From an uncultured Chloroflexia bacterium (GTDB lineage: Bacteria > Chloroflexota > Anaerolineae > CG2-30-64-16): a stretch of 64,000 nucleotides of DNA. How positions within the stretch are numbered: position 1 is the stretch's first letter; the number at the start of each line of letters is the position of its first letter. Of the stretch, positions 47,611 to 58,320 are shown one piece after another. Location: NCBI GenBank assembly GCA_963774265.1, contig CAVZDU010000001.1, forward strand, positions 160,001 to 224,000, in the 5' to 3' direction. The notes below the pieces were generated by a model that was not told the origin of the DNA, did not search any database, and worked only from the letters and a program-made list of their open reading frames with translations. A program made the position numbers and the translations under genes.

Positions 47611-48743
47611 CTATAGCCACTTCCGATACACGCGATACCGTTTGTAAATCCGGCACCCTAGGTGCGCGGCCAGCTCCGGCGTGCGCGGGTTGTCGTCGGA
47701 CGTCAGCGACAGATCGGCCCAGCGGTAACCCCTGGCGGTCGCGCGGCGCGCCATCTCGTCGAAGAGCAGCACGGCCACCCCCGTGTCCCAGTGTTCAGGC
47801 AGCACCAGCACGCTCTTGATGGCGATGCACGCGACCGGCCGGCGCAGGCGCCACAGGAGCGGCAGGTATTGCCACGGATAGCGCAGCCCGCCGGCATGGA
47901 TGAAGGCCTCGTTGAGGTTCGGGATGCCGGGAAACCAGCCCACCGCTTCACCCCCGGTTGTCTCGGCAAACAGGATGAGCTCCGGGTCGGCGATCTCCTT
48001 GAATGGCGCCAGCAGCGCGTCCAGGGCCGACCGCTCCCACGGGATGAAGCCGGGGAGGTGCGCCAGGCACCGGTTCATCAGCGTAAGGATCCGCCCGGTC
48101 TCCTCCTCCCAGTTCGCCAGGTCGGCCCTGCGCACGCGGTAGCGGCCGCGGCCGCGCACCCGCTCGGCCAGCCGGGCCAGCCGCTGCATAGGAGGCGTCG
48201 CCAGGTCCAGGTCGATCGCGAACGCCAGGTTATCCCCCGCGCGGGCTCGAAACCGCACGACTCGAAGAACCCCTGGTAGTAGGGAGGCGTGTGGCCGCAC
48301 AGGATGGCCGGCGGCCGGTCGCGGCCCTCGATCAGCACGCCATACGCATCCTCGTAGTCCAGGTTGAACGGGCCGTGCAGGGCGTCGAGCTTGCGGCCCC
48401 GCGCCCACGCCGTGGCATGGTCGAACAGCGCCCGCGCCACCGTCTCGTCCTCCACGCACTCGAAGAAACCGATGACCGCGTCCTTCCACGGATGCGCCGC
48501 GTGGCTGGCCCGATCCTCCGCGCAGCAGATCGTGCCCACCGGCTCGCGGCCCCGCCAGGCGATGAAAAACTCGGCATCACCCCGCTCGAACCATGCCCCG
48601 CGGCGCGGGTCGATCACCTTCTCCCGCTCGGGCAGCAGCGGCGGTACCCAAAGGGGATCGCCGCGGTAAATCCGCCACGGAAAAGTGAGAAACGTGCGCC
48701 GCTCCCGCGCGCTCGCCACCGGCCGTATTACAACCTCACTCAT
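47611..48743 (-). CDS. YghO/bacterial ceramide-synthase-like GNAT acyltransferase; frameshift near 48235
   Basis: FLTFPWRIYRGDPLWVPPLL.E, GFFEC, GPFN, PPYY, P.LN, KRYRVYRK. Confidence 0.7.
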
Positions 48744-50093
48744 GATGACGAAGCCTTGCGCCGCGACTCCAGCTCCGCCGCGATCTCCGAATACCCTTCG
48801 CGGCCCAGGGGATACACCAGCGCGAAGAGGATCCCGGCGCAGAGCAGGACCGCGGGAATGGGCCCCGCGACGATGCGGATGCCCAGCAGCGCGGCGTCCG
48901 GCTGGACGGCATTGGCCGCGTTGTAACCGGTGAACTTGAGCACCAGCAGCGCCAGCGGCACCGCGACCGAGCTGGCGATCTTCTGCGCCAGCGTGACCAG
49001 GCTGTAGAACATCCCCTCGTGGCGCTCGCCGGTCCGGTATTCGCCCCACTCGATCGCGTCGGGGATGATCGACCAGGGCAGGACGTGCGCGGCCGAGACG
49101 CCGATGCCGGCCAGCACGCACAGCGTGATAATGATGGGCAGGCCGGCCCCCGCGCCGACCGCGGCCAGGACGATCTGCACGACGGCCCAGAACGAAATAC
49201 CAGCGATGTAGGCCAGCCGCTTGTTCAGCCGCCGCGAGGCCCACTGCCACAGCGGCAGCGCACAGATAGCCACCACGAAGATCGTCCCCATGATCATGTC
49301 GCTCTGCGCCTCGCGCCGGAGCACATATTTAATGAAGAACAAGAGGATCGTCTGCAGGATGTCCATTGCCATCCAGGTGAACAGGTAGATGCCGGCGCTG
49401 AAGAGAAAGGGCCGGTTGCCGAGCGCCGCCCGGACCGAGTCCTTCAGGCCCGGCTGCGCCTGCTGCATCAGCTCCGGCCGCTTCGCGCGTGGTGAAAAAG
49501 ACCAGCAGCAGTGGGAGCGCGGATGCCAGGCCGAACGCGACCGCCATCAGCAGCACCCGGCCCGCGTTCTCCGGCCGGAAGCTGCCGACGATCATCAGCG
49601 GGACGGTGAACGCGACCAGGCTGCCCGCGATCGAGAAGAACATGCGGGTGGCGGTGAGGCTGGTGCGCTCGTCGTAATCGGGGGTGAGTTCGGGCGTGAG
49701 CGCGAAGTAAGGCATGTAGACGAAGGTGGCCGCGATGTCGAAAAACACATAGGCGGCCGCGTAATAGATGGCCAGGCCCAGGTCCCCCTGCAGCGGGGGG
49801 CGCCACCACAGCAGCATGAACGCCAGCGCAAACGGCAGGCTGCCGAACAGCAGGAACGGCCGGCGCCGGCCCCAGCGCGTGCGCGTACGGTCCGAGATGT
49901 AACCGATCAGGGGGTCGTTGATATAGTCCGACGAGCGGCCGATAAAGATGGCCGCGGCCGCGATCGCCGGATCGACGCGCACCACATCGGTGAGAAAGAT
50001 GGCGAAGTAGGCACTGACGATGGTCAGGGTCAGGCTGAAACCGGTGTCGCCTGAGCCGTAGATCCAGCGCTGCGAGCGCGAGAGTCTTTGCAT
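48740..50093 (-). CDS. MFS_2 / GPH-family (MelB-like) symporter; frameshift near 49480
   Basis: YGSGD.G, DYINDPLIG..SDRTRTRWGRRRPFLL, ALTPELT.DY.ERT.L, PDAIE...TGER.EGMFY. Confidence 0.9.
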
Positions 50094-50202
50094 GGCGCGC
50101 CTCAAAACCGGGGATAAACGCGTAACAAATGGCTTGCGCGGTATGGTAAGTCACAAGACGAAGGAGCACAACTTGAGGCCGGTCCAAAGTCACTTCGTCA
50201 CG

Positions 50203-50231
50203 TTGACACCATGTGGAAGTGATAGGATAAT
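50203..50231 (+). promoter_or_regulatory. Sigma70-type promoter of the ferredoxin/oxidoreductase/multiheme operon
   Basis: TTGACA-N17-GATAAT. Confidence 0.6.
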
Positions 50232-50261
50232 TGCGCGACCAATCGCGTGGATGGAGGCCGC

Positions 50262-50510
50262 ATGCCCCTCTTCGACCTGTTCCGCCGTGACCGCGCCCGC
50301 CGGCAGGCCGCCGTGTCAGCGCAGGTCGTGCCTGAACAAGGCCGCTGCGTCCAGTGCGGCATCTGCTCGTTCTACTGCCCGATCAACATCGACGTCCGCC
50401 TGCACGCCTGGGAGGGTGCACCCGTGGTGGAAAGCTACTGCCTGACCTGTGGCGAGTGCGTTACGCGCTGTCCGCGCGGTGTCCTTCACTTCGAGCGCTC
50501 GGCGCCATAG
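50262..50510 (+). CDS. 2x[4Fe-4S] ferredoxin
   Basis: CVQCGICSFYCP and CLTCGECVTRCP; SD GGAGG. Confidence 0.9.
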   Translation: MPLFDLFRRDRARRQAAVSAQVVPEQGRCVQCGICSFYCPINIDVRLHAWEGAPVVESYCLTCGECVTRCPRGVLHFERSAP

Positions 50511-50546
50511 AGCGCCTGCGGGCGGCGCCTCCACGAAGGAGCACCC

Positions 50547-51854
50547 ATGCCAACTCGTTACCTCATCATCGGCGCCGGCGTCGCGGCGGTGGCTGCCGCG
50601 GAAGCGATCCGCCAGGCGGATCGCAGTGGTGAGCTCACGCTGCTTTCCGACGATCCCAACGGCTACTATTCACGACCCGGACTCGCCTATTACCTGACCG
50701 GCGAGGTCAACCGGTCGCTCCTCTTCCCCTTTAAGGAAGCCGCCTGGGATCGGCTCCCCGCGCGCCGTGTGCTCGGTCGCGCCGCGAGCATCAACCCCGC
50801 GGCGCACCGCGTCACCCTGGTTGACGGCGCGACGCTCCCGTACGACCGTCTGCTCGTCGCCACTGGTGCGTCGGCCGTGCAACCTGTGCTCCCAGGCATC
50901 GATCTGCCCGAAGTGGTCAAGCTGGACAATCTGGAAGATGCGGATCGGATGATTGCGATCGCGGCCAAGGCGCGCGCCGCGGTTGTGGTGGGCGGCGGCA
51001 TCACCGCGTTGGAGATCGTGGAAGGGCTGCGCAACCGCTGCCGGCGCATCCACTATTTGCTGCGCGGGGATCGCTATTGGGGCAATGTGCTGGACGAGGA
51101 GGAATCGAAGCTGGTCATGTCACGCCTGACGCATGAAGACATCCGGCTCCACACCCGTACCGAGCTGGCCGCGATTGAAGGCACTGGCGGCCATGTCTCC
51201 GCCGTTCTGACGACGGGAGGTGAGCGCATCCCGTGTGGCATGGTGGCAGTCGCCATTGGCGTCAGCCCGCGCGCCGAACTGGCGCGCGCGGCGGGACTGC
51301 CCCTCGACCGCGGCATCCTGGTCGACCAATACCTCGCAGCAGGCCTGCCCGATGTCTTCGCGGCAGGCGACGTAGCCCAGGTGCATGACCCGCGGTCAGG
51401 CAGGGCAATCCTGGACACGCTCTGGAACTCCGCGCGCGGCCAGGGGACCGTCGCCGGCCGCAACATGACGGGCGCGAATGAGCGTTATGTGAAGACGACG
51501 GCGCTGAACGTCACCCGCCTGGCGGGCCTGACTACCACCATCATCGGGGCCGTGGGTTCGGGCCGTGATGCCGACCTGGTGGGCATCGCTCGCGGCGACA
51601 GCGAGGCGTGGCGCCAACTGGGCGACGCGCTGGTTGCCGAGGATCATCATGAGGTCAACCGCCTGCGCCTGTTGGTCGGACCTACAACGCTCGTGGGAGC
51701 AGTGGTCATGGGCGATCAGACACCCTCGCGGCCATTGCAGCGGCTGATCGCCGATGGTGTTGATATCACGCCCGTACGCAGCCGCCTGCTTGCGCCGCGC
51801 GCGCCGCTGGCCCAGATCATCACGGAGTTCGCCCATGCGACCCAGCGCGCGTGA
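50547..51854 (+). CDS. NAD(P)/FAD-dependent oxidoreductase (NirB N-terminal/rubredoxin-reductase-like)
   Basis: IIGAGVAA, YDRLLVATG, VVVGGGITALE, VFAAGDVA. Confidence 0.88.
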   Translation: MPTRYLIIGAGVAAVAAAEAIRQADRSGELTLLSDDPNGYYSRPGLAYYLTGEVNRSLLFPFKEAAWDRLPARRVLGRAASINPAAHRVTLVDGATLPYDRLLVATGASAVQPVLPGIDLPEVVKLDNLEDADRMIAIAAKARAAVVVGGGITALEIVEGLRNRCRRIHYLLRGDRYWGNVLDEEESKLVMSRLTHEDIRLHTRTELAAIEGTGGHVSAVLTTGGERIPCGMVAVAIGVSPRAELARAAGLPLDRGILVDQYLAAGLPDVFAAGDVAQVHDPRSGRAILDTLWNSARGQGTVAGRNMTGANERYVKTTALNVTRLAGLTTTIIGAVGSGRDADLVGIARGDSEAWRQLGDALVAEDHHEVNRLRLLVGPTTLVGAVVMGDQTPSRPLQRLIADGVDITPVRSRLLAPRAPLAQIITEFAHATQRA

Positions 51855-52494
51855 ATTGTGGTGGGCGCTCGCGATCATCGCAGGCGTCACGGCTGTCTAC
51901 CTGCTTGCCGTCCGCGGTCTCGGCCTCGATGCGAAATCGCGGGGCCTGCTGGGCCACGGTATCGGCATCCTTGGGTTCGTATTGATGCTGATGACGGAGA
52001 CCCTCTACTCTCTGCGCAAGCGCTCGCGACAGGCGCGCTGGGGTCGCACGGCGAACTGGCTGCGCTTTCACATCGTGACCGGCCTGGTTGGCCCGTACAT
52101 GGTGCTGCTCCACGCCGCGTGGCGTTATAACGGCCTGGCAGGGCTGGTCACGCTGATGACAATCATCGTCGTGATCAGCGGGTTTGTCGGCCGCTACATC
52201 TATACGCGGGTGCCCCGCAATGCCGACGGGCTGATGCTGGAGGCCGGAGAATTGCAGGCGCAGATCCAGGCGGCCGTCCTGGCGCTAGCTCAGGGGGATC
52301 AGTTGCAGGCGGCTGAAGTCCAACGGCTGACCGCCCGGCGTCGACTGCTTGAACGACAGGCCGCGTCCCTGGTCACCGTCCGCCGCACGATGGGCGTCTG
52401 GACCTCCGTTCATATCCCGATCGGCGTAGCACTGTTTACCGCGGCGTTCGTGCATGTGGGCGCCGCGCTCTACTACGCCACACTGCTACACTAG
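51835..52494 (+). CDS. Integral membrane protein with paired His residues (putative b-type cytochrome)
   Basis: About 5 TM helices; YSLRKR, WLRFHIVTGLVGPYMVLLH and WTSVHIPIGVALFTAAFVH. Confidence 0.6.
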   Translation: MRPSARELWWALAIIAGVTAVYLLAVRGLGLDAKSRGLLGHGIGILGFVLMLMTETLYSLRKRSRQARWGRTANWLRFHIVTGLVGPYMVLLHAAWRYNGLAGLVTLMTIIVVISGFVGRYIYTRVPRNADGLMLEAGELQAQIQAAVLALAQGDQLQAAEVQRLTARRRLLERQAASLVTVRRTMGVWTSVHIPIGVALFTAAFVHVGAALYYATLLH

Positions 52495-52520
52495 ACCGCA
52501 GACCGCGGCAGGCATCAACG

Positions 52521-53963
52521 ATGAACCGACGTCTCGGCTGTCTCACCGGCGGGGGCTTGCTGGCTGCCGGAGTCACGCTCGCCCTGGTGCTGGCGTTCTT
52601 CCTGGCGACCGGCGGCCGCATGTTTAGTCCAGGGCCGCTCAATGTGCTGGGCAATGAACCGCTCGGCCAGGTCCGCTCCCACGCGGAGACGGGCGGCCGC
52701 TGCCAGGCCTGTCACACGTCGCCCTGGTCAAGGATCACCCTGTCCGATCGCTGCCTGGCGTGCCACACATCGGTTGCCGACCAGCTGCAAACCGGCAAGG
52801 GCCTTCACGCAGGGATGCTGAGACAGGACGCCGCGATCGACTGTCGCGACTGCCACACCGAGCATCGGGGGCCAACCGGTGCGCTCACCGAGATCGATGC
52901 GGCTACGTTCCCCCATGCAGCAACAGGCTATGCACTCACCGGCCATCAGAAGATGACCGACGGCCGCGCCTTCGTGTGCAGCGACTGCCACACAGGCGCC
53001 ACCTTCGAATTCGCCGTCGCCGCCTGCACCGACTGCCACCGGCAGCTCGATGCGGCGACTATGACAACCCACATTGCGGATTTCAGTGATGCCTGTCTCG
53101 GGTGTCACGACGGCGCGGACCGGTATAGCCGCAATCGTTTCGATCACAACGCGCTCGCTTTTCCGCTGCAGGGCAAGCATGCGCAAGCCGGGTGCGGCCA
53201 GTGTCATACTGGCGCGGCCACGGTCGAGGACCTGCAAGGCACGCGCAACACGTGCGTGGATTGCCACCTGAAGGACGACACGCACAAGGGACAGTTCGGG
53301 ACGGATTGCGCGGGGTGCCACAACACGACCGCCTGGCCCGACGCGACCGTCGATCATGGTCAGACGGCGTTCCCGCTGACCGGCAAACACACGGGCGTCC
53401 AGTGCCAGGACTGTCACAAAAGTGGCGTGTTCAAGGGCACGTCACAGGCGTGCATGGATTGCCACGAGAAGGACGACGCGCACAAGGGGCAGTTCGGGGG
53501 GGATTGCGCGGGGTGCCACAACACGACCGCCTGGCCCGACGCGACCTTCGATCATGGTCAGACGGCATTCCCGCTGACCGGCAAACACACGGGCATCCAG
53601 TGCCAGGACTGTCACAAAAGTGGCGTGTTCAAGGGGACCGATACAGACTGCGTTTCCTGCCATGCCGACCCCGCTTTTCACCGCGGCGTCTTCGGGACGA
53701 CGTGCGCAGACTGCCACACCGCGCTGGGCTGGACGCCGGCGACCTTCAACCTGCGCCACACTTTCCCCATCGACCACGGCGAAGAGGGACCTGCGGCGTG
53801 CCGCGCCTGTCACCCCGACAGCATCTCAGCCTACACTTGCTACGGCTGCCACGAACACAACCCGGTCGAGATCGCCGCGAAGCACGCGGAAGAGGCGCCG
53901 GGCGACATCTCGAACTGCGTGAAGTGCCACCCCACGGGGCAGAAGGAAGAGGGAGGTGATTGA
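52521..53963 (+). CDS. Membrane-anchored multiheme c-type cytochrome, 18 CxxCH motifs
   Basis: N-terminal TM then FSPGPL; 18 CxxCH counted; repeated (F/V)DH...FPL.GKH....C..CH units. Confidence 0.93.
   Translation: MNRRLGCLTGGGLLAAGVTLALVLAFFLATGGRMFSPGPLNVLGNEPLGQVRSHAETGGRCQACHTSPWSRITLSDRCLACHTSVADQLQTGKGLHAGMLRQDAAIDCRDCHTEHRGPTGALTEIDAATFPHAATGYALTGHQKMTDGRAFVCSDCHTGATFEFAVAACTDCHRQLDAATMTTHIADFSDACLGCHDGADRYSRNRFDHNALAFPLQGKHAQAGCGQCHTGAATVEDLQGTRNTCVDCHLKDDTHKGQFGTDCAGCHNTTAWPDATVDHGQTAFPLTGKHTGVQCQDCHKSGVFKGTSQACMDCHEKDDAHKGQFGGDCAGCHNTTAWPDATFDHGQTAFPLTGKHTGIQCQDCHKSGVFKGTDTDCVSCHADPAFHRGVFGTTCADCHTALGWTPATFNLRHTFPIDHGEEGPAACRACHPDSISAYTCYGCHEHNPVEIAAKHAEEAPGDISNCVKCHPTGQKEEGGD
53253..53648 (+). 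repeat. 198-bp tandem duplication (66 aa, 3 hemes per unit) inside the cytochrome gene
   Basis: Units start at 53253 and 53451 and are near-identical in DNA. Confidence 0.88.
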
Positions 53964-53990
53964 CGAGCGCTGATCGTCCCCTTCATCCCG

Positions 53991-54019
53991 TTGACGAGAC
54001 CCCCCGCTTGCGCTAGAAT
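53991..54019 (+). promoter_or_regulatory. Sigma70-type promoter of the amino-acid ABC genes
   Basis: TTGACG-N17-TAGAAT. Confidence 0.65.
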
Positions 54020-54076
54020 CTGGGTCAGCGTGTCAGCCAGGCGCGCCCAACTCGCGTTTACCAGGGGGAGATGGCC

Positions 54077-55762
54077 ATGCGTAAAGTTCTCACTCTCGCT
54101 TCGCTCGTGCTTGTTCTTGTCCTCGTGATCTCCGCGTGCAGCCCCGCGCCGGCGGCGACCACACCGGCCGCGGCCCCGACTGTTGCGCCCGCGCAGCCAC
54201 CTGCGACCGCTGCCCCCGGGACGAGTGCAACTGCTGAGGTGGCGCCCACGGCCGAGCCTCCACAGGCCGAGGTTGCCGCTGCTCCGCCCACCCTGCGCCT
54301 GCCCGATCTCAAGGGCCGCAAGGTGCGCGCGGTCACCGAAAACGCCTACACCCCGCTGAACTTCGTCGACCCGCTCACCGGCAAGGCAATCGGCTGGGAG
54401 TACGACGCGGTGAATGAGATTTGCCGCCGGTTGAACTGCACGGTGGAATGGGGCATCACCTCGTGGGACGCCATGATCCCCGCGGTCAAGGACGGGCAGT
54501 TCGACGTGGGCATGGACGGCATCACCATCAACGACGAGCGCAAGCAGCAGGTGGACTTCTCCGTGCCTTACATGGTGTCGCAGCAATTCATGCTAGTGCG
54601 CGCGGACGAGACCCGCTTCGCGACCGCCGCAGCGTTTGCGACCGACCCGAAGCTGCTGATTGGCTCGCAGGCGGGCACCACCAACTTTTATACCGCGGTG
54701 TACAGCGTGCTGGATGGCGACGAACAGAACCCGCGTATCAAGCTGTTCGAGACGTTCGGCGCGGCCGTGCAGGCCCTGCTGGGGGGCGATGTCGACACAG
54801 TCCTGATGGACAAAGCCTCGTCGGCGGGCTACATTGGCGCAAACCCGGACAAGCTCAAGATGCTCGACGAGGCGTTGGGGACCGAGCAGTTCGGGTTCAT
54901 CTTCACGCCCAAATCCGATCTGGTCGCGCCCTTCAACCAGGCCATCAACCAGATGAGGGCGGAAGGGTATCTCGACTATCTCAACAGCCGCTGGTTCTTC
55001 TTCACCGACCCGAACGGCGAGGATATGTATGACAAGCTGCCCGACCTGGCGGGCCGCACCGTCCGCGCGGTGACCGAGAACGCGTACACGCCACTCAACT
55101 TCGTGGATCCCGTCACGGGCAAGGCCGCGGGCTGGGAGTATGAGGTCACCGAGGAGATCTGCCGGCGCCTCAACTGCAAGGTGGAATGGGGCATCACATC
55201 GTGGGATGCGATGATCACGGCAGTGAAGGACGGCCAGTTCGACGTCGGCATGGATGGCATCACGATCACCGACGAGCGCAAAGGGCAGGTGGACTTCTCC
55301 GACCCCTATATACTATCGCAGCAGTTCATGCTGGTCCGCGCGGACGAGACCCGGTTCACCACCGCCGCGGCGTTCGCGGCAGACCCGAAGTTGTTGATTG
55401 GCTCGCAGGCGGGCACGACGAACTTCTACGTTGCCGTGTACAACGTACTGGACGGGGACGAGGCGAACCCGCGCATCAAGCTGTTCGAGACGTTCGGCGC
55501 CGCGGTGCAGGCGCTGCTGGGCGGCGATGTTGACATGGTGCTGATGGACGCTGCGTCCTCGCGCGGCTACATCGGCGCAAATCCTGACAAGCTTAAGGTG
55601 CTCGACGAGGCGTTGGGCACCGAGGAGTTCGGCTACATCTTCACGCCCAAGTCTGACCTGGTTGCACCATTCAACGCCGCCATCCAGACGTTGCAGGACG
55701 ACGGATTCCTCAACAAGATGAACATGCGCTGGTTCTACCTGTATAACGCGAGCGCGAAGTAG
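54077..55762 (+). CDS. Polar amino-acid ABC substrate-binding lipoprotein with two tandem SBP_bac_3 domains
   Basis: Lipobox ISAC; LPDL.GR.VRAVTENAYTPLNFVDP...GQFDVGMDGITI.DERK occurs twice. Confidence 0.9.
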   Translation: MRKVLTLASLVLVLVLVISACSPAPAATTPAAAPTVAPAQPPATAAPGTSATAEVAPTAEPPQAEVAAAPPTLRLPDLKGRKVRAVTENAYTPLNFVDPLTGKAIGWEYDAVNEICRRLNCTVEWGITSWDAMIPAVKDGQFDVGMDGITINDERKQQVDFSVPYMVSQQFMLVRADETRFATAAAFATDPKLLIGSQAGTTNFYTAVYSVLDGDEQNPRIKLFETFGAAVQALLGGDVDTVLMDKASSAGYIGANPDKLKMLDEALGTEQFGFIFTPKSDLVAPFNQAINQMRAEGYLDYLNSRWFFFTDPNGEDMYDKLPDLAGRTVRAVTENAYTPLNFVDPVTGKAAGWEYEVTEEICRRLNCKVEWGITSWDAMITAVKDGQFDVGMDGITITDERKGQVDFSDPYILSQQFMLVRADETRFTTAAAFAADPKLLIGSQAGTTNFYVAVYNVLDGDEANPRIKLFETFGAAVQALLGGDVDMVLMDAASSRGYIGANPDKLKVLDEALGTEEFGYIFTPKSDLVAPFNAAIQTLQDDGFLNKMNMRWFYLYNASAK

Positions 55763-55863: not shown

Positions 55864-56724
55864 ATGACCTCTCAACGATACGCTGCGCGGGAATCGCGCA
55901 TGCTTCCATTCACGAACCGGCTTGCGCGCCTGCCCTATTGGCTTCTCGCGACGATCCTGCTGGGCGTCATCTTCCTGTGGATCATGCTGGCCAACGCCGA
56001 TTATCGCGTCATCCTGAACGCGGTGGCGCGGGGCGTCGGCACGACCGTTTATGTAACATTTGTTGCATATCTGCTGGCAATCTTTATCGGGCTCGTCATT
56101 GGGCTGATGCGGGTGTCACAGGTTCGGATTGCGCACGAGGTCTCGACGTTTTACGTGGAGATCCTGCGCGGTGTGCCCATGCTGGTGATCCTCTACTACA
56201 TCGCCTTTGTCGGCGCACCGGGCCTGGCCCATGCTATCAACGCCGTCGGACAATTGCTGGCCGGCGCCGGGCCCCTGGCGGGCCTTGGCCGGGCGCTGAG
56301 TGGTTTCCAGGTGCGCGACCTGGATTTCACGACGCGCGCCATCATCGCGCTGACGCTGGGCTACAGCGCCTTCATCGCCGAGATCTTTCGCGCGGGGATC
56401 CAGTCGATCGGCCGGGGGCAAATGGAGGCGGCGCGTTCTCTGGGGATGTCCTACCGGCAAGCCATGGAAAGCATAATCCTGCCCCAGGCCGTGCGCACCG
56501 TGCTGCCGCCGCTGGGCAACGATTTGATCGCCATGTTGAAAGACTCGTCGCTCGTGTCGGTGCTGGGGGTGCAGGACATCACCCAGCTCGGCAAGGTCTA
56601 CTCCGCCAGCACGTTTCGTTTTTTTGAGACCTACAACGTGGTGGCTTTCCTCTACCTGGTCATGACCCTCGGGCTGACGCTGTTCGTGCGCTGGATCGAA
56701 CGACGTATGGCTCGGCGCGCCTAG
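55864..56724 (+). CDS. Polar amino-acid ABC permease
   Basis: [45 protein letters not shown]. Confidence 0.92.
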
Positions 56725-58320
56725 CAGCCTGTCGGGGAGTTGCCACTGTGGGACAGGCTGAATCGTGATACACTGGTCGCATGACCAGAAAATTCAAGAC
56801 GGTTGACTACGAAGCGGCTCTCGATCAGACGGTCAGTCTGCGAGAAGCGTTGCCGGCCAATCATCTGGCTCGGTTCGTGGTAGAGTTGGTGGCCCAGCTG
56901 GATTTAACCAACATCTACCAACGCTATGGAGCACACGGCGGCGAAGCCTATGCGCCGGAGATCCTGCTGGCGCTGTTGTTTTACGGCTACGCCACTGGCG
57001 TGTTCAGTTCCCGCAAGATCGAAAGGGCGACCTACGAGACGTTGCCTTTCCGGTTTGTAGCGGGCGGGCTGCATCCCGATCACGACACGCTGGCGAACTT
57101 TCGCAAGACGTTTCGGGTCGAGATCAAAGAGCTGTTCGTGCAAGTGCTGTTTCTGGCCCAGGCTACTGGCTACTTCAAGCTTGGCAACATCAGCATGGAT
57201 GGCTCCAAGGTGCATGCCAATGCTTCCAAGAGCAAGGCGATCAGCTTCAAACGGCTACTGGAACTGGAAGCCCACTTGCGGGCCGAAGTGGACCAGTTGT
57301 TCATCCTGGCTGAACAGGCGGACCGCCACGAACTGTCGGACGCCATGAATGTCGCCGACGAGATCACTTTACGACAGGAACGTCTTGAGCGGTTGGCCGA
57401 GGCCAAGAAGGTGCTGCAAGCCCGGGCGCAGGAGCGGCAGGCGGCCGAGCAGGCCGAGTACGAAGCCAAGCAACGTGAGCGCGCTGGCCAAAGCCAAGCG
57501 CTCAGGACGCAAGCCGCCGGGACGGCCGCCAACGCCGCCGTCTGGCGAGCCGCAGGACAAGGACCCGTACAACTTCACCGACCCTGAGTCGCGGATCATG
57601 AAGTGTTCCAGCAGCGCCGGGTTTGAGCAAGCCTACAACGCCCAGGTGGCAGTAGACCAGGATAGCTTGTTGATCGTCGCCTATAGCTTGTCCAACCACC
57701 CGAACGACAAAGCCGAGGCTGAACCAACTCTGGAAGCTCTGCCACCGGCCCTGGGCACGCCCGCAGCGGCGGCGCTGGACAACGGCTTCTGGAGCGAGAA
57801 GAATCTCGCTGCTCTGGAAAAGCGGCGCATCGAGCCTTACATCGCCACGGGCCGCGAGCCGCATCACAAGAGTTGGCAAGAGCGCTTCACCGCCGAGCCC
57901 GAGCCGCCAGCGGAGGATGCCAGCCCGCAGGTCAAGATGGCCTACAGGCTGCGTACTGAGATCGGCCAGGCGATCTACCGCTTACGCAAATGCACCGTCG
58001 AGCCGGTGATTGGCATCATCAAAGCGGTGCTCGGCTTCCGCCAGTTCTCGTTACGCGGCCTCAACGCCGCCGATAGCGAATGGGCCCTGGTCTGTTTGGC
58101 CTTTAACCTGAAGCGCATGCATACGTTGAGCTTGGCCTAACCGCGCCCAGCGCATGCTGGAGGCGGCTCGATGCAGCGCCGCCCGCCTGAGTTTGGGATG
58201 TTAAGGATCATTTTCGATACTCGCCTGCCGGAGACCGTCACTACCAGCCGCTAACGTTAGCCCTTTGGGCTTACCGTACCGGCTGTTAGCCAGCCAATAA
58301 CGCTCCTCTCCGACAGGCTG
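56725..58320 (+). mobile_element. IS1182-family element, 1596 bp
   Basis: TIRs CAGCCTGTCGGGGAG / rc CAGCCTGTCGGAGAG; CTAG TSD at 56721-24 and 58321-24. Confidence 0.9.
56781..58140 (+). CDS. IS1182 transposase; frameshift near 57480
   Basis: YGYATGVFSSRKIE, PDHDTL..FR, DGSKV.ANAS, NFTDPESRIM, AYNAQ, RKCTVEPV.G.IK...GFRQF.LRG. Confidence 0.9.

Follow-up and report, generated by a model that had tools for sequence, protein, structure and literature searches.

A four-gene cassette of Chloroflexota as a candidate transmembrane electron conduit from NAD(P)H and ferredoxin to a multihaem cytochrome

How do electrons from the cytoplasm cross the membrane to reach the multihaem cytochromes of Anaerolineae? 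This question is raised by four adjacent genes in a 64,000-nucleotide stretch of DNA from an uncultured Chloroflexia bacterium (contig CAVZDU010000001.1, positions 160,001 to 224,000; hereafter the window, in which all coordinates are given). Large multihaem cytochromes have repeatedly been noted in Anaerolineae, with a hint of extracellular electron transfer (bioRxiv 10.1101/2021.08.23.457424; PMC7399161), and the accessible portions of these two sources give no membrane-crossing route to them. Likewise, the accessible portions of the full-text literature, outside subscription journals and supplements, yielded no description of the cassette. The four genes, which encode a ferredoxin, a flavoprotein, a histidine-rich membrane protein and a multihaem cytochrome, offer a testable four-protein answer to the question. 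We consider it probable, at roughly 0.62, that their products assemble into a single membrane complex through which the cytoplasmic NAD(P)H/ferredoxin pool is connected with a c-type haem chain outside the membrane. This reading draws on the observed gene order, motifs, conservation and gene fusions, and on a modelled fold, topology and docking. The features of the cassette are as follows.

50203..50231, + strand: sigma-70-type promoter-like site (TTGACA-17-GATAAT, 11 of 12 positions; a match to the consensus only)
50262..50510, + strand: gene for a 2x[4Fe-4S] ferredoxin of 82 residues (ATG at 50262; the open reading frame (ORF) opens at GTG 50247)
50547..51854, + strand: gene for an FAD/NAD(P)H flavoprotein of the ferredoxin-reductase type, 435 residues (Pyr_redox_2)
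51835..52494, + strand: gene for a five-helix membrane protein of 219 residues, a putative dihaem cytochrome b (conserved histidines and model)
52521..53963, + strand: gene for an N-terminally anchored 18-haem c-type cytochrome of 480 residues (CxxCH count and Pfam)
53251..53635, + strand: 198-nt tandem duplication within the cytochrome gene (period 198, 1.9 copies, 94% matches)

Gene order and conservation of the cassette

A first-pass annotation, made from the sequence of the window, had described four tightly packed co-directional genes preceded by a promoter-like element, and this layout stands. The gaps between the genes measure 36, −20 and 26 nt, the negative value corresponding to 20 nt that the membrane-protein gene shares with the end of the flavoprotein gene, and the promoter-like site lies ahead of the ferredoxin gene. 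The ORF of the membrane protein spans 51754–52494, and its orthologues point to a start at ATG 51835; the ferredoxin orthologues start at the position of ATG 50262. The four genes are putatively co-transcribed.

The gene order is retained in many Chloroflexota genomes, a comparison that the first-pass annotation had proposed, and the trio of ferredoxin, flavoprotein and membrane protein proved to be co-conserved with the cytochrome. Relatives of the membrane protein were identified in 551 matching stretches of species genomes; the counts that follow rest on the best 80 of these, all of them Chloroflexota records by their titles. In 74 of 78 evaluable loci the membrane-protein gene comes immediately after the flavoprotein gene. 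The ferredoxin gene in turn immediately precedes the flavoprotein gene in 58/63; the five exceptions have the order ferredoxin-cytochrome-flavoprotein-membrane protein. A cytochrome with at least eight CxxCH motifs directly follows the membrane-protein gene in 48 of 73 loci. All 55 fully flanked loci carry such a cytochrome on the same strand (26 downstream only, 20 upstream only, nine on both sides and none on neither), and 68 of the 80 loci encode, on the same strand, a homologue that matches the window's cytochrome with 180 bits or more. Relatives frequently carry one or two additional larger cytochromes on the same strand, with up to 51 CxxCH motifs, and the window holds the minimal form of the cassette. 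In the window's own genome each of the four genes is single-copy.

The only other recurrent neighbours are two-component regulators and, in 15 of the 80 loci, an extracytoplasmic function (ECF) sigma factor together with a DUF5666 protein. In L064 (7110–7766), L082 (4030–5379) and 13 further loci, where the cytochromes lie upstream of the trio, the gene after that of the membrane protein encodes an ECF-type sigma factor, accompanied by a DUF5666/DUF5667 protein.

Several relatives join these components within single chains. A paralogous cassette of three proteins (L098, 4324–11632, − strand) was found in genome G298, which belongs to the same class as the window's genome and also holds a canonical cassette. 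Here the flavoprotein carries four FHA domains, the iron-sulphur protein carries two cNMP-binding domains, and the membrane domain continues at its C-terminus into a c-type domain bearing five CxxCH motifs. The metagenomic protein P0280 (644 residues) unites a dicluster ferredoxin, a flavoprotein of another subtype and the membrane domain (hhalign probability 99.2%, E 1.5e-19). A second metagenomic protein, P0281 (740 residues), is labelled in its source as thioredoxin-reductase plus Fe-S (PreA) and contains the pairs of histidines spaced by 13 residues described below; from the labels and these pairs it appears to be of the same three-part type. P0279, P0280 and P0281, all metagenomic, each combine a thioredoxin-reductase-like flavoprotein with the membrane domain in a single chain. 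Seven longer matches were found in all; P0274 and P0276 were rejected as fusions as they look like frameshift or merge artefacts, and P0275 and P0278 were rejected because they hold the flavoprotein only in part.

The four proteins and the modelled complex

The first description of the membrane protein, as a protein of about five transmembrane helices with two His-x13-His pairs, proved accurate: the pairs are H79/H93 and H193/H207 in the numbering of the 219-residue protein. The family conserves these membrane histidines: in 86 diverse homologues, the most distant at 28% identity, H193 and H207 never vary, conservation of H79 and H93 is at least 90%, and 85 of the 86 proteins have both pairs. 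The protein thus shows the four-histidine signature of the dihaem cytochrome b superfamily (PF01292, PF14358 and PF01794). When the 86 homologues were scanned singly, with Pfam matches counted at E <= 0.01, 26 matched Ni_hydr_CYTB (PF01292; best E 6e-08), 12 matched DUF4405 (PF14358) and four matched Ferric_reduct (PF01794). A DUF4405 protein has been purified with haem b (PMC11334425). On the strength of its histidines the window's protein putatively binds two b haems. The family to which it belongs is large, with at least 3701 proteins at E <= 0.001 (8000 scored candidates, 90% clusters) and 2467 representatives after clustering at 50% identity; among the best 120 of the 3701, six carry a precomputed PF01292 match and none has an informative name.

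A family-profile search of the PDB returned no solved relative of the membrane protein (best E 0.25), and its structure was predicted with AlphaFold2. The model built from the 86-sequence alignment reached a predicted local distance difference test score (pLDDT) of 93.7 and a predicted template modelling score of 0.86; it replaced a poor model (pLDDT 67) from a 14-sequence alignment. The modelled helices span residues 6–29, 38–63, 72–93, 100–124 and 159–216, with a helical insert at 137–152 and very short outer loops. In a wide search with VIA-align the best dihaem match was E. coli CybB (Z 8.9, root-mean-square deviation (rmsd) 3.5, 132 residues aligned), and STEAP4 (6hcy; Z 8.8, rmsd 4.7, 153 residues aligned over 4–219), STEAP1 (6y9b), cytochrome b561 and Dcytb were also listed. 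The likeness of the model to the dihaem b fold is consistent with the proposed assignment and not decisive.

The predicted topology places the two pairs of haem ligands at opposite faces of the membrane. Loops 59–75 and 123–188 carry six and nine lysine or arginine residues, respectively, and the remaining loops carry 0–2. In the fused protein of L098 the haem of the c-type domain would be attached covalently outside the membrane, and therefore the C-terminus, and with it H93 and H207, is expected at the outer face.

We also modelled the complex of ferredoxin, flavoprotein and membrane protein with two haems, as the first-pass annotation had envisaged. The model scored 0.80, and none of three controls exceeded 0.33. 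In calibration 116 of 157 solved complexes attained that mark, as did two of 215 mismatched pairs; the calibration is rough here because our model used its own alignments and ligands. At least 81% of the contacts recurred between runs, and the pLDDT of the partner was 80 or higher. The modelled contacts involve ferredoxin residues 42–47, 61–67, 70 and 74, which flank the cluster cysteines, flavoprotein residues 51–55 and 58, and membrane-protein residues 2–3, 62–76, 119–128 and 183–187. The contacted loops of the membrane protein, assigned to the cytoplasmic face because they are rich in lysine and arginine, are predicted to sit directly below H79 and H193. The model thereby supports docking of the ferredoxin and the flavoprotein on the predicted cytoplasmic face, with the cluster loops of the ferredoxin placed against it.

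The two cytoplasmic partners show the cofactor motifs ascribed to them from the start. The ferredoxin contains eight cysteines arranged as two CxxCxxCxxxCP motifs, all eight invariant among 56 orthologues, and matches several Fer4 families above their Pfam cut-offs (E 1.2e-08 among them), which places it with the 2x[4Fe-4S] bacterial-type ferredoxins. The flavoprotein matches Pyr_redox_2 (E 2.4e-49; 168.8 bits, cut-off 26.1) and Pyr_redox (E 9.6e-13), as expected of an FAD/NAD(P) oxidoreductase of the ferredoxin-reductase type. Residues G9, G11, G149–G151, E156, G274 and D275, which belong to the GD motif and to the glycine motifs that bind FAD and NAD(P)H, are invariant in its 56 orthologues. 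As the protein has only two cysteines in total and lacks a CxxC motif, it is not a disulfide reductase. Assignment as a CoA-disulfide reductase or NADH oxidase was considered and rejected, given a YSRPG region devoid of an active-site cysteine. Its closest solved relative is an FAD subunit (8c0z_E, E 4.8e-41), followed by the ferredoxin reductases of biphenyl-dioxygenase systems.

The cytochrome was confirmed as an N-terminally anchored protein with 18 CxxCH motifs. These fall into six groups of three, and the protein matches the Cytochrome_C7 (E 7.7e-24; 83.7 bits, cut-off 24.8; four stretches) and Cytochrom_c3_2 (E 6e-21; 75.1 bits, cut-off 25) families, which places it with the multihaem c-type cytochromes of the c7/c3 type. 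The two copies of the 198-nt repeat each encode a 66-residue three-haem unit, and residues 245–310 share 57 of their 66 amino acids with residues 311–376. Of the 48 orthologues encoded directly downstream of the membrane-protein gene, 35 have a number of haems divisible by three. By sequence no solved relative was found beyond a weak c3 match (E 0.0051). In the 29 orthologues that have 18 haems, conservation is at least 90% for every motif residue and at least 97% for 18 histidines outside the motifs, with no conserved methionine; this pattern fits 18 bis-His haems and no open catalytic site. To judge from it, the cytochrome looks like a wire rather than an enzyme.

A single hydrophobic segment (residues 11–29) would anchor the cytochrome. 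A lipoprotein anchor was rejected: Cys7 lies before this segment, and only 59% of the 29 orthologues retain it. The first-pass annotation had named a cytoplasmic cytochrome as an outcome incompatible with a conduit, and both the N-in signal-anchor and the Ccm genes in the genome speak against such a location. It had also pointed to ccm or res genes for haem maturation; the former part was borne out by CcmF-like, CcmC-like and CcmE proteins, and the latter was not, as ResB (System II) was not found in the window's genome (84% complete). The 18-haem protein is the largest product of 14 ORFs with at least three CxxCH motifs in that genome. Contig C8 of genome G000 (207901–210688, + strand) contains two overlapping ORFs with nine and eight CxxCH motifs, possibly a single gene for a 17-haem cytochrome that a frameshift has interrupted.

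Proposed electron path and competing explanations

Co-conservation, the membrane histidines and the complex model together support a wire leading from cytoplasmic NAD(P)H or ferredoxin to the haem chain, as first suggested, and the cassette probably carries electrons from the inside of the cell to the outside. In the mechanism that we propose, NAD(P)H would reduce the FAD of the flavoprotein, and electrons would then pass through the two [4Fe-4S] clusters of the ferredoxin, seated on the positively charged cytoplasmic loops. They would continue to an inner haem b (ligands H79 and H193) and an outer haem b (H93 and H207), and finally along the anchored cytochrome, with its 18 bis-His c haems, to an acceptor that is external or part of the cell wall. 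On bioenergetic grounds outward flow would be favoured by the membrane potential, and because it would leave a proton in the cytoplasm the complex would consume proton-motive force. It would re-oxidise NAD(P)H as an electron sink and conserve no energy itself. We infer the direction of flow, the acceptor, a truly extracellular end point and independence from quinones.

A broader proposal, which we hold tentatively and at somewhat below even odds, is that the cassette encodes a quinone-independent oxidoreductase between NAD(P)H and extracellular acceptors. It would act as a “split NOX”, working through the ferredoxin and the dihaem b protein into a wire of three-haem units, and would be the main electron discharge route of Anaerolineae and their relatives. 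If so, these abundant fermenters of sediments and digesters would discharge electrons to minerals, humics, electrodes or partner cells.

Several observations weigh against a dedicated transmembrane conduit. The window's membrane protein scores under all Pfam gathering thresholds, its sole match being DUF4405 at 19.5 bits versus 26.7, so that no family model of the dihaem cytochrome b superfamily is matched at its gathering score. Foldseek comparison of its model with the PDB gave BAR-domain and coiled-coil entries only, none at E <= 0.001, and the VIA-align dihaem matches (Z 8.4–8.9) occur amid many coiled coils of equal Z, a helical background. A homologue of the membrane protein at E <= 1e-10 is present in 58 of 401 sampled genomes of the phylum, hence the distribution of the cassette is patchy. 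Eight loci of the same phylum (L083–L090, families f31 and f34) hold the trio and, in 8/8 cases, no multihaem cytochrome nearby. The window's genome encodes MenA (233 bits, above cut-off) and complex-I-type NuoD-type proteins, and PF01292 relatives commonly bind quinones, which keeps a quinone-linked role a live rival; MqnA was not found in this genome.

The eight loci have the order flavoprotein-ferredoxin-membrane protein, the ferredoxin gene being undetected in L084. Their flavoproteins measure about 510–610 residues, and their membrane proteins are longer than the window's, at about 295–350 residues, with both His-x13-His pairs kept. In five of the eight a conserved protein of about 110–140 residues follows, with two hydrophobic helices and no Pfam match. 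The occurrence of the trio in families that lack the cytochrome implies that it needs no such partner and can serve other acceptors; as far as these sequences tell, the trio is older than its link to multihaem cytochromes.

The alternatives differ in where they would place the ends of the electron path. With a quinone-linked role, the complex would be an NAD(P)H:menaquinone oxidoreductase resembling type-B succinate:quinone oxidoreductase, or its b subunit would be a quinol dehydrogenase resembling CbcL of Geobacter, and the cytochrome would be fed from the quinone pool. The 26 PF01292 matches among the 86 family members point this way, known members of PF01292 being quinone-reactive, as do CybB as the best dihaem structural match, the MenA and NuoD-type proteins, and the combination of flavoprotein, iron-sulphur protein and five-helix dihaem b protein, which is the architecture of type-B complex II. 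We nevertheless judge this role unlikely: the cytochrome adjoins the membrane-protein gene, or nearly so, in all 55 fully flanked loci, and fused b-c forms exist, both of which argue for direct transfer from b to c haems, and the outer loops of the membrane protein are very short. Electrons might instead flow inward through the same complex, with ferredoxin or NAD(P)+ receiving them from an external donor such as Fe(II), a cathode or a partner cell. Every cofactor can carry electrons in either direction, and the 18 conserved distal histidines imply bis-His c haems, which are usually of low potential; such flow would run against the membrane potential, most external donors would be far more positive than NAD(P)+, and the cassette has no energy-coupling subunit, which makes this direction distinctly improbable.

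Two further explanations concern the partners of the complex. The cytochrome could act as an electron store, a capacitor role having been proposed for large cytochromes (PMC11495043), or could hand its electrons to some separate enzyme outside the cytoplasm, a reductase or a repair enzyme, in the way that MsrQ serves MsrP. The 13 further ORFs with at least three CxxCH motifs in the window's genome would leave room for this, as would the trios that lack a multihaem cytochrome. No reductase gene is conserved beside the cassette in the 80 loci, and the same-strand cytochromes of relatives, with up to 51 haems, fit extension in length better than delivery to an enzyme; we rate this explanation slightly more doubtful still than inward flow. 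Finally, the genes could be neighbours whose products form no complex, the flavoprotein and ferredoxin serving a cytoplasmic enzyme in the manner of PadH/PadF-type or AorC-type subunits. The best NCBIfam match of the flavoprotein is indeed PadH (NF045765; 171.4 bits, E 2.8e-50) and that of the ferredoxin is PadF (NF045763; 27.4 bits, E 2.8e-06), and the best solved relative is the FAD subunit of 8c0z. These scores lie far under the equivalog cut-offs of 475 and 150, the flanking genes include no subunit of a 2-oxoacid or aldehyde oxidoreductase, and it is at odds with the synteny and the 20-nt overlap, with the fusions and with the complex model, so that this explanation is very improbable.

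The cassette is an uncharacterised and experimentally tractable candidate for a transmembrane electron conduit. If the path through one membrane complex holds, it would give a function to a membrane-protein family with thousands of unannotated members and mark out a path that leads from NAD(P)H to the cell surface and avoids the quinone pool. It would also provide a compact gene set testable in a heterologous host and a genomic marker of electron-exporting fermenters in sediments, wastewater and digesters.

Neighbouring genes and comparison with known systems

The genes flanking the cassette comprise an MFS_2 transporter, a GNAT-like gene, an ABC binding protein with its permease, and a transposase. 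Two promoter-like sites were found in 49900–54200, compared with 0.5 ± 0.7 expected from shuffles, and a scan of the same interval found no terminator-like site. The second site lies 3' of the cytochrome stop and marks the start of the next, unrelated unit, that of the ABC binding protein (SBP_bac_3).

53991..54019, + strand: second promoter-like site (TTGACG-17-TAGAAT, 10 of 12 positions)

This unit encodes a solute-binding protein of 563 residues with two tandem SBP_bac_3 domains (54071–55762, + strand), next to which lies the ABC permease (55864–56724). Three of the neighbours are divided between reading frames. The transposase (56781–58140, + strand) extends over two overlapping frames, with the N-terminal DUF772 domain in 56781–57587 and the DDE domain in 57349–58140. 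Upstream and divergent, the MFS_2 (GPH-type) transporter (48740–50105, − strand) has profile positions 1–197 in ORF 49329–50105 and positions 208–426 in ORF 48740–49468, and is either a frameshifted pseudogene or the product of an assembly indel. The GNAT-like gene (47611–49250, − strand) likewise appears to continue in a second frame, with the N-terminal part in ORF 48078–49250 and the Acetyltransf_1 match in ORF 47611–48489.

Neither a porin nor a catalytic reductase is encoded among the flanking genes, in agreement with the first-pass annotation, whose distinction from established conduits also survives a Pfam scan of these genes. The flanks contain no outer-membrane beta-barrel gene and the cytochrome scores 21 bits for DmsE (cut-off 192), unlike Mtr/Pcc systems. 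In the operon and its flanks, to which this comparison was confined rather than the rest of the genome, Ndh2, EetA/EetB, PplA and ApbE of the flavin-based Listeria pathway are absent. With 28.1 bits for HmcA, against an equivalog cut-off of 400, the cytochrome does not belong to the Hmc complex either, and by these scores it is an equivalog of none of the curated complexes.

Among cytoplasmic systems, the FAD subunit of 8c0z and the PadH/PadF pair are like the cassette, as modelled, in that an FAD subunit docks on a ferredoxin-like subunit. The window's proteins differ in scoring well under the equivalog cut-offs, so that they are not PadH/PadF equivalogs, and in having no catalytic oxidoreductase subunit in the window. 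On the outer side, the cytochrome resembles the poly-c7 cytochromes of Geobacter sulfurreducens, such as GSU1996, which are built of tandem c7-type three-haem units; the window's protein even carries a recently duplicated 198-nt unit. It differs in being membrane-anchored, and all of its haems appear to be bis-His.

The membrane protein recalls small membrane cytochromes with four central histidines, namely the DUF4405, PepSY-like and MsrQ-like cytochromes of flavinylation-associated extracytosolic electron transfer and FezC (PMC11334425), and the 12 PF14358 matches among its 86 homologues reinforce this likeness. Apart from its sub-threshold DUF4405 score, the window's protein is set apart from that group by its five helices and long cytoplasmic helical insert, and by partners that comprise a ferredoxin, a flavoprotein and a multihaem cytochrome, with neither ApbE nor a flavinylated protein.

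In composition, two systems come close. The Hmc and Tmc complexes of sulfate reducers combine in one operon an extracytoplasmic multihaem c3-type cytochrome, a membrane cytochrome b and a cytoplasmic iron-sulphur protein, all three of which have counterparts in the cassette; the cassette has no HdrD-like subunit, and its cytoplasmic end is an NAD(P)H flavoprotein. CbcL of Geobacter and related b-c cytochromes oxidise menaquinol in diderm cells, upstream of porin-cytochrome complexes. They couple a PF01292-type dihaem b protein to a multihaem c domain at the outer face, as the cassette may do with its putative dihaem b protein, a combination that the fused b-c protein of L098 reproduces within the present family, whereas the CbcL type has neither a flavoprotein nor a ferredoxin partner.

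In architecture, the closest parallel is type-B succinate:quinone oxidoreductase or fumarate reductase, which consists of a flavoprotein, an iron-sulphur protein and a five-helix dihaem cytochrome b. Set beside its general description, the cassette would share the three-part design and two b haems across the membrane. It differs in its donor, NAD(P)H rather than succinate, in its iron-sulphur protein, which is a small dicluster ferredoxin, and in its distal partner, which appears to be a c-type cytochrome rather than a quinone.

In logic, the cassette is nearest to the NOX/FRE/STEAP enzymes and to MsrQ-Fre. In these systems electrons pass from cytoplasmic NAD(P)H to a flavin, an inner haem b, an outer haem b and an acceptor on the far side of the membrane. 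The cassette would follow the same path, with haem-binding histidines contributed by two helices in pairs 13 residues apart. It does not belong to the NOX/ferric-reductase-domain family, which is defined by six helices and an FNR-type domain: its membrane protein has five helices, only four of 86 homologues match PF01794, and its flavoprotein is a separate Pyr_redox_2 protein with two dinucleotide domains. A 2x[4Fe-4S] ferredoxin is inserted into the path and the acceptor is a multihaem cytochrome. By analogy, then, the cassette would pair the path logic of NOX/FRE/STEAP and MsrQ-Fre with the architecture of type-B complex II and a composition closest to that of Hmc/Tmc and CbcL.

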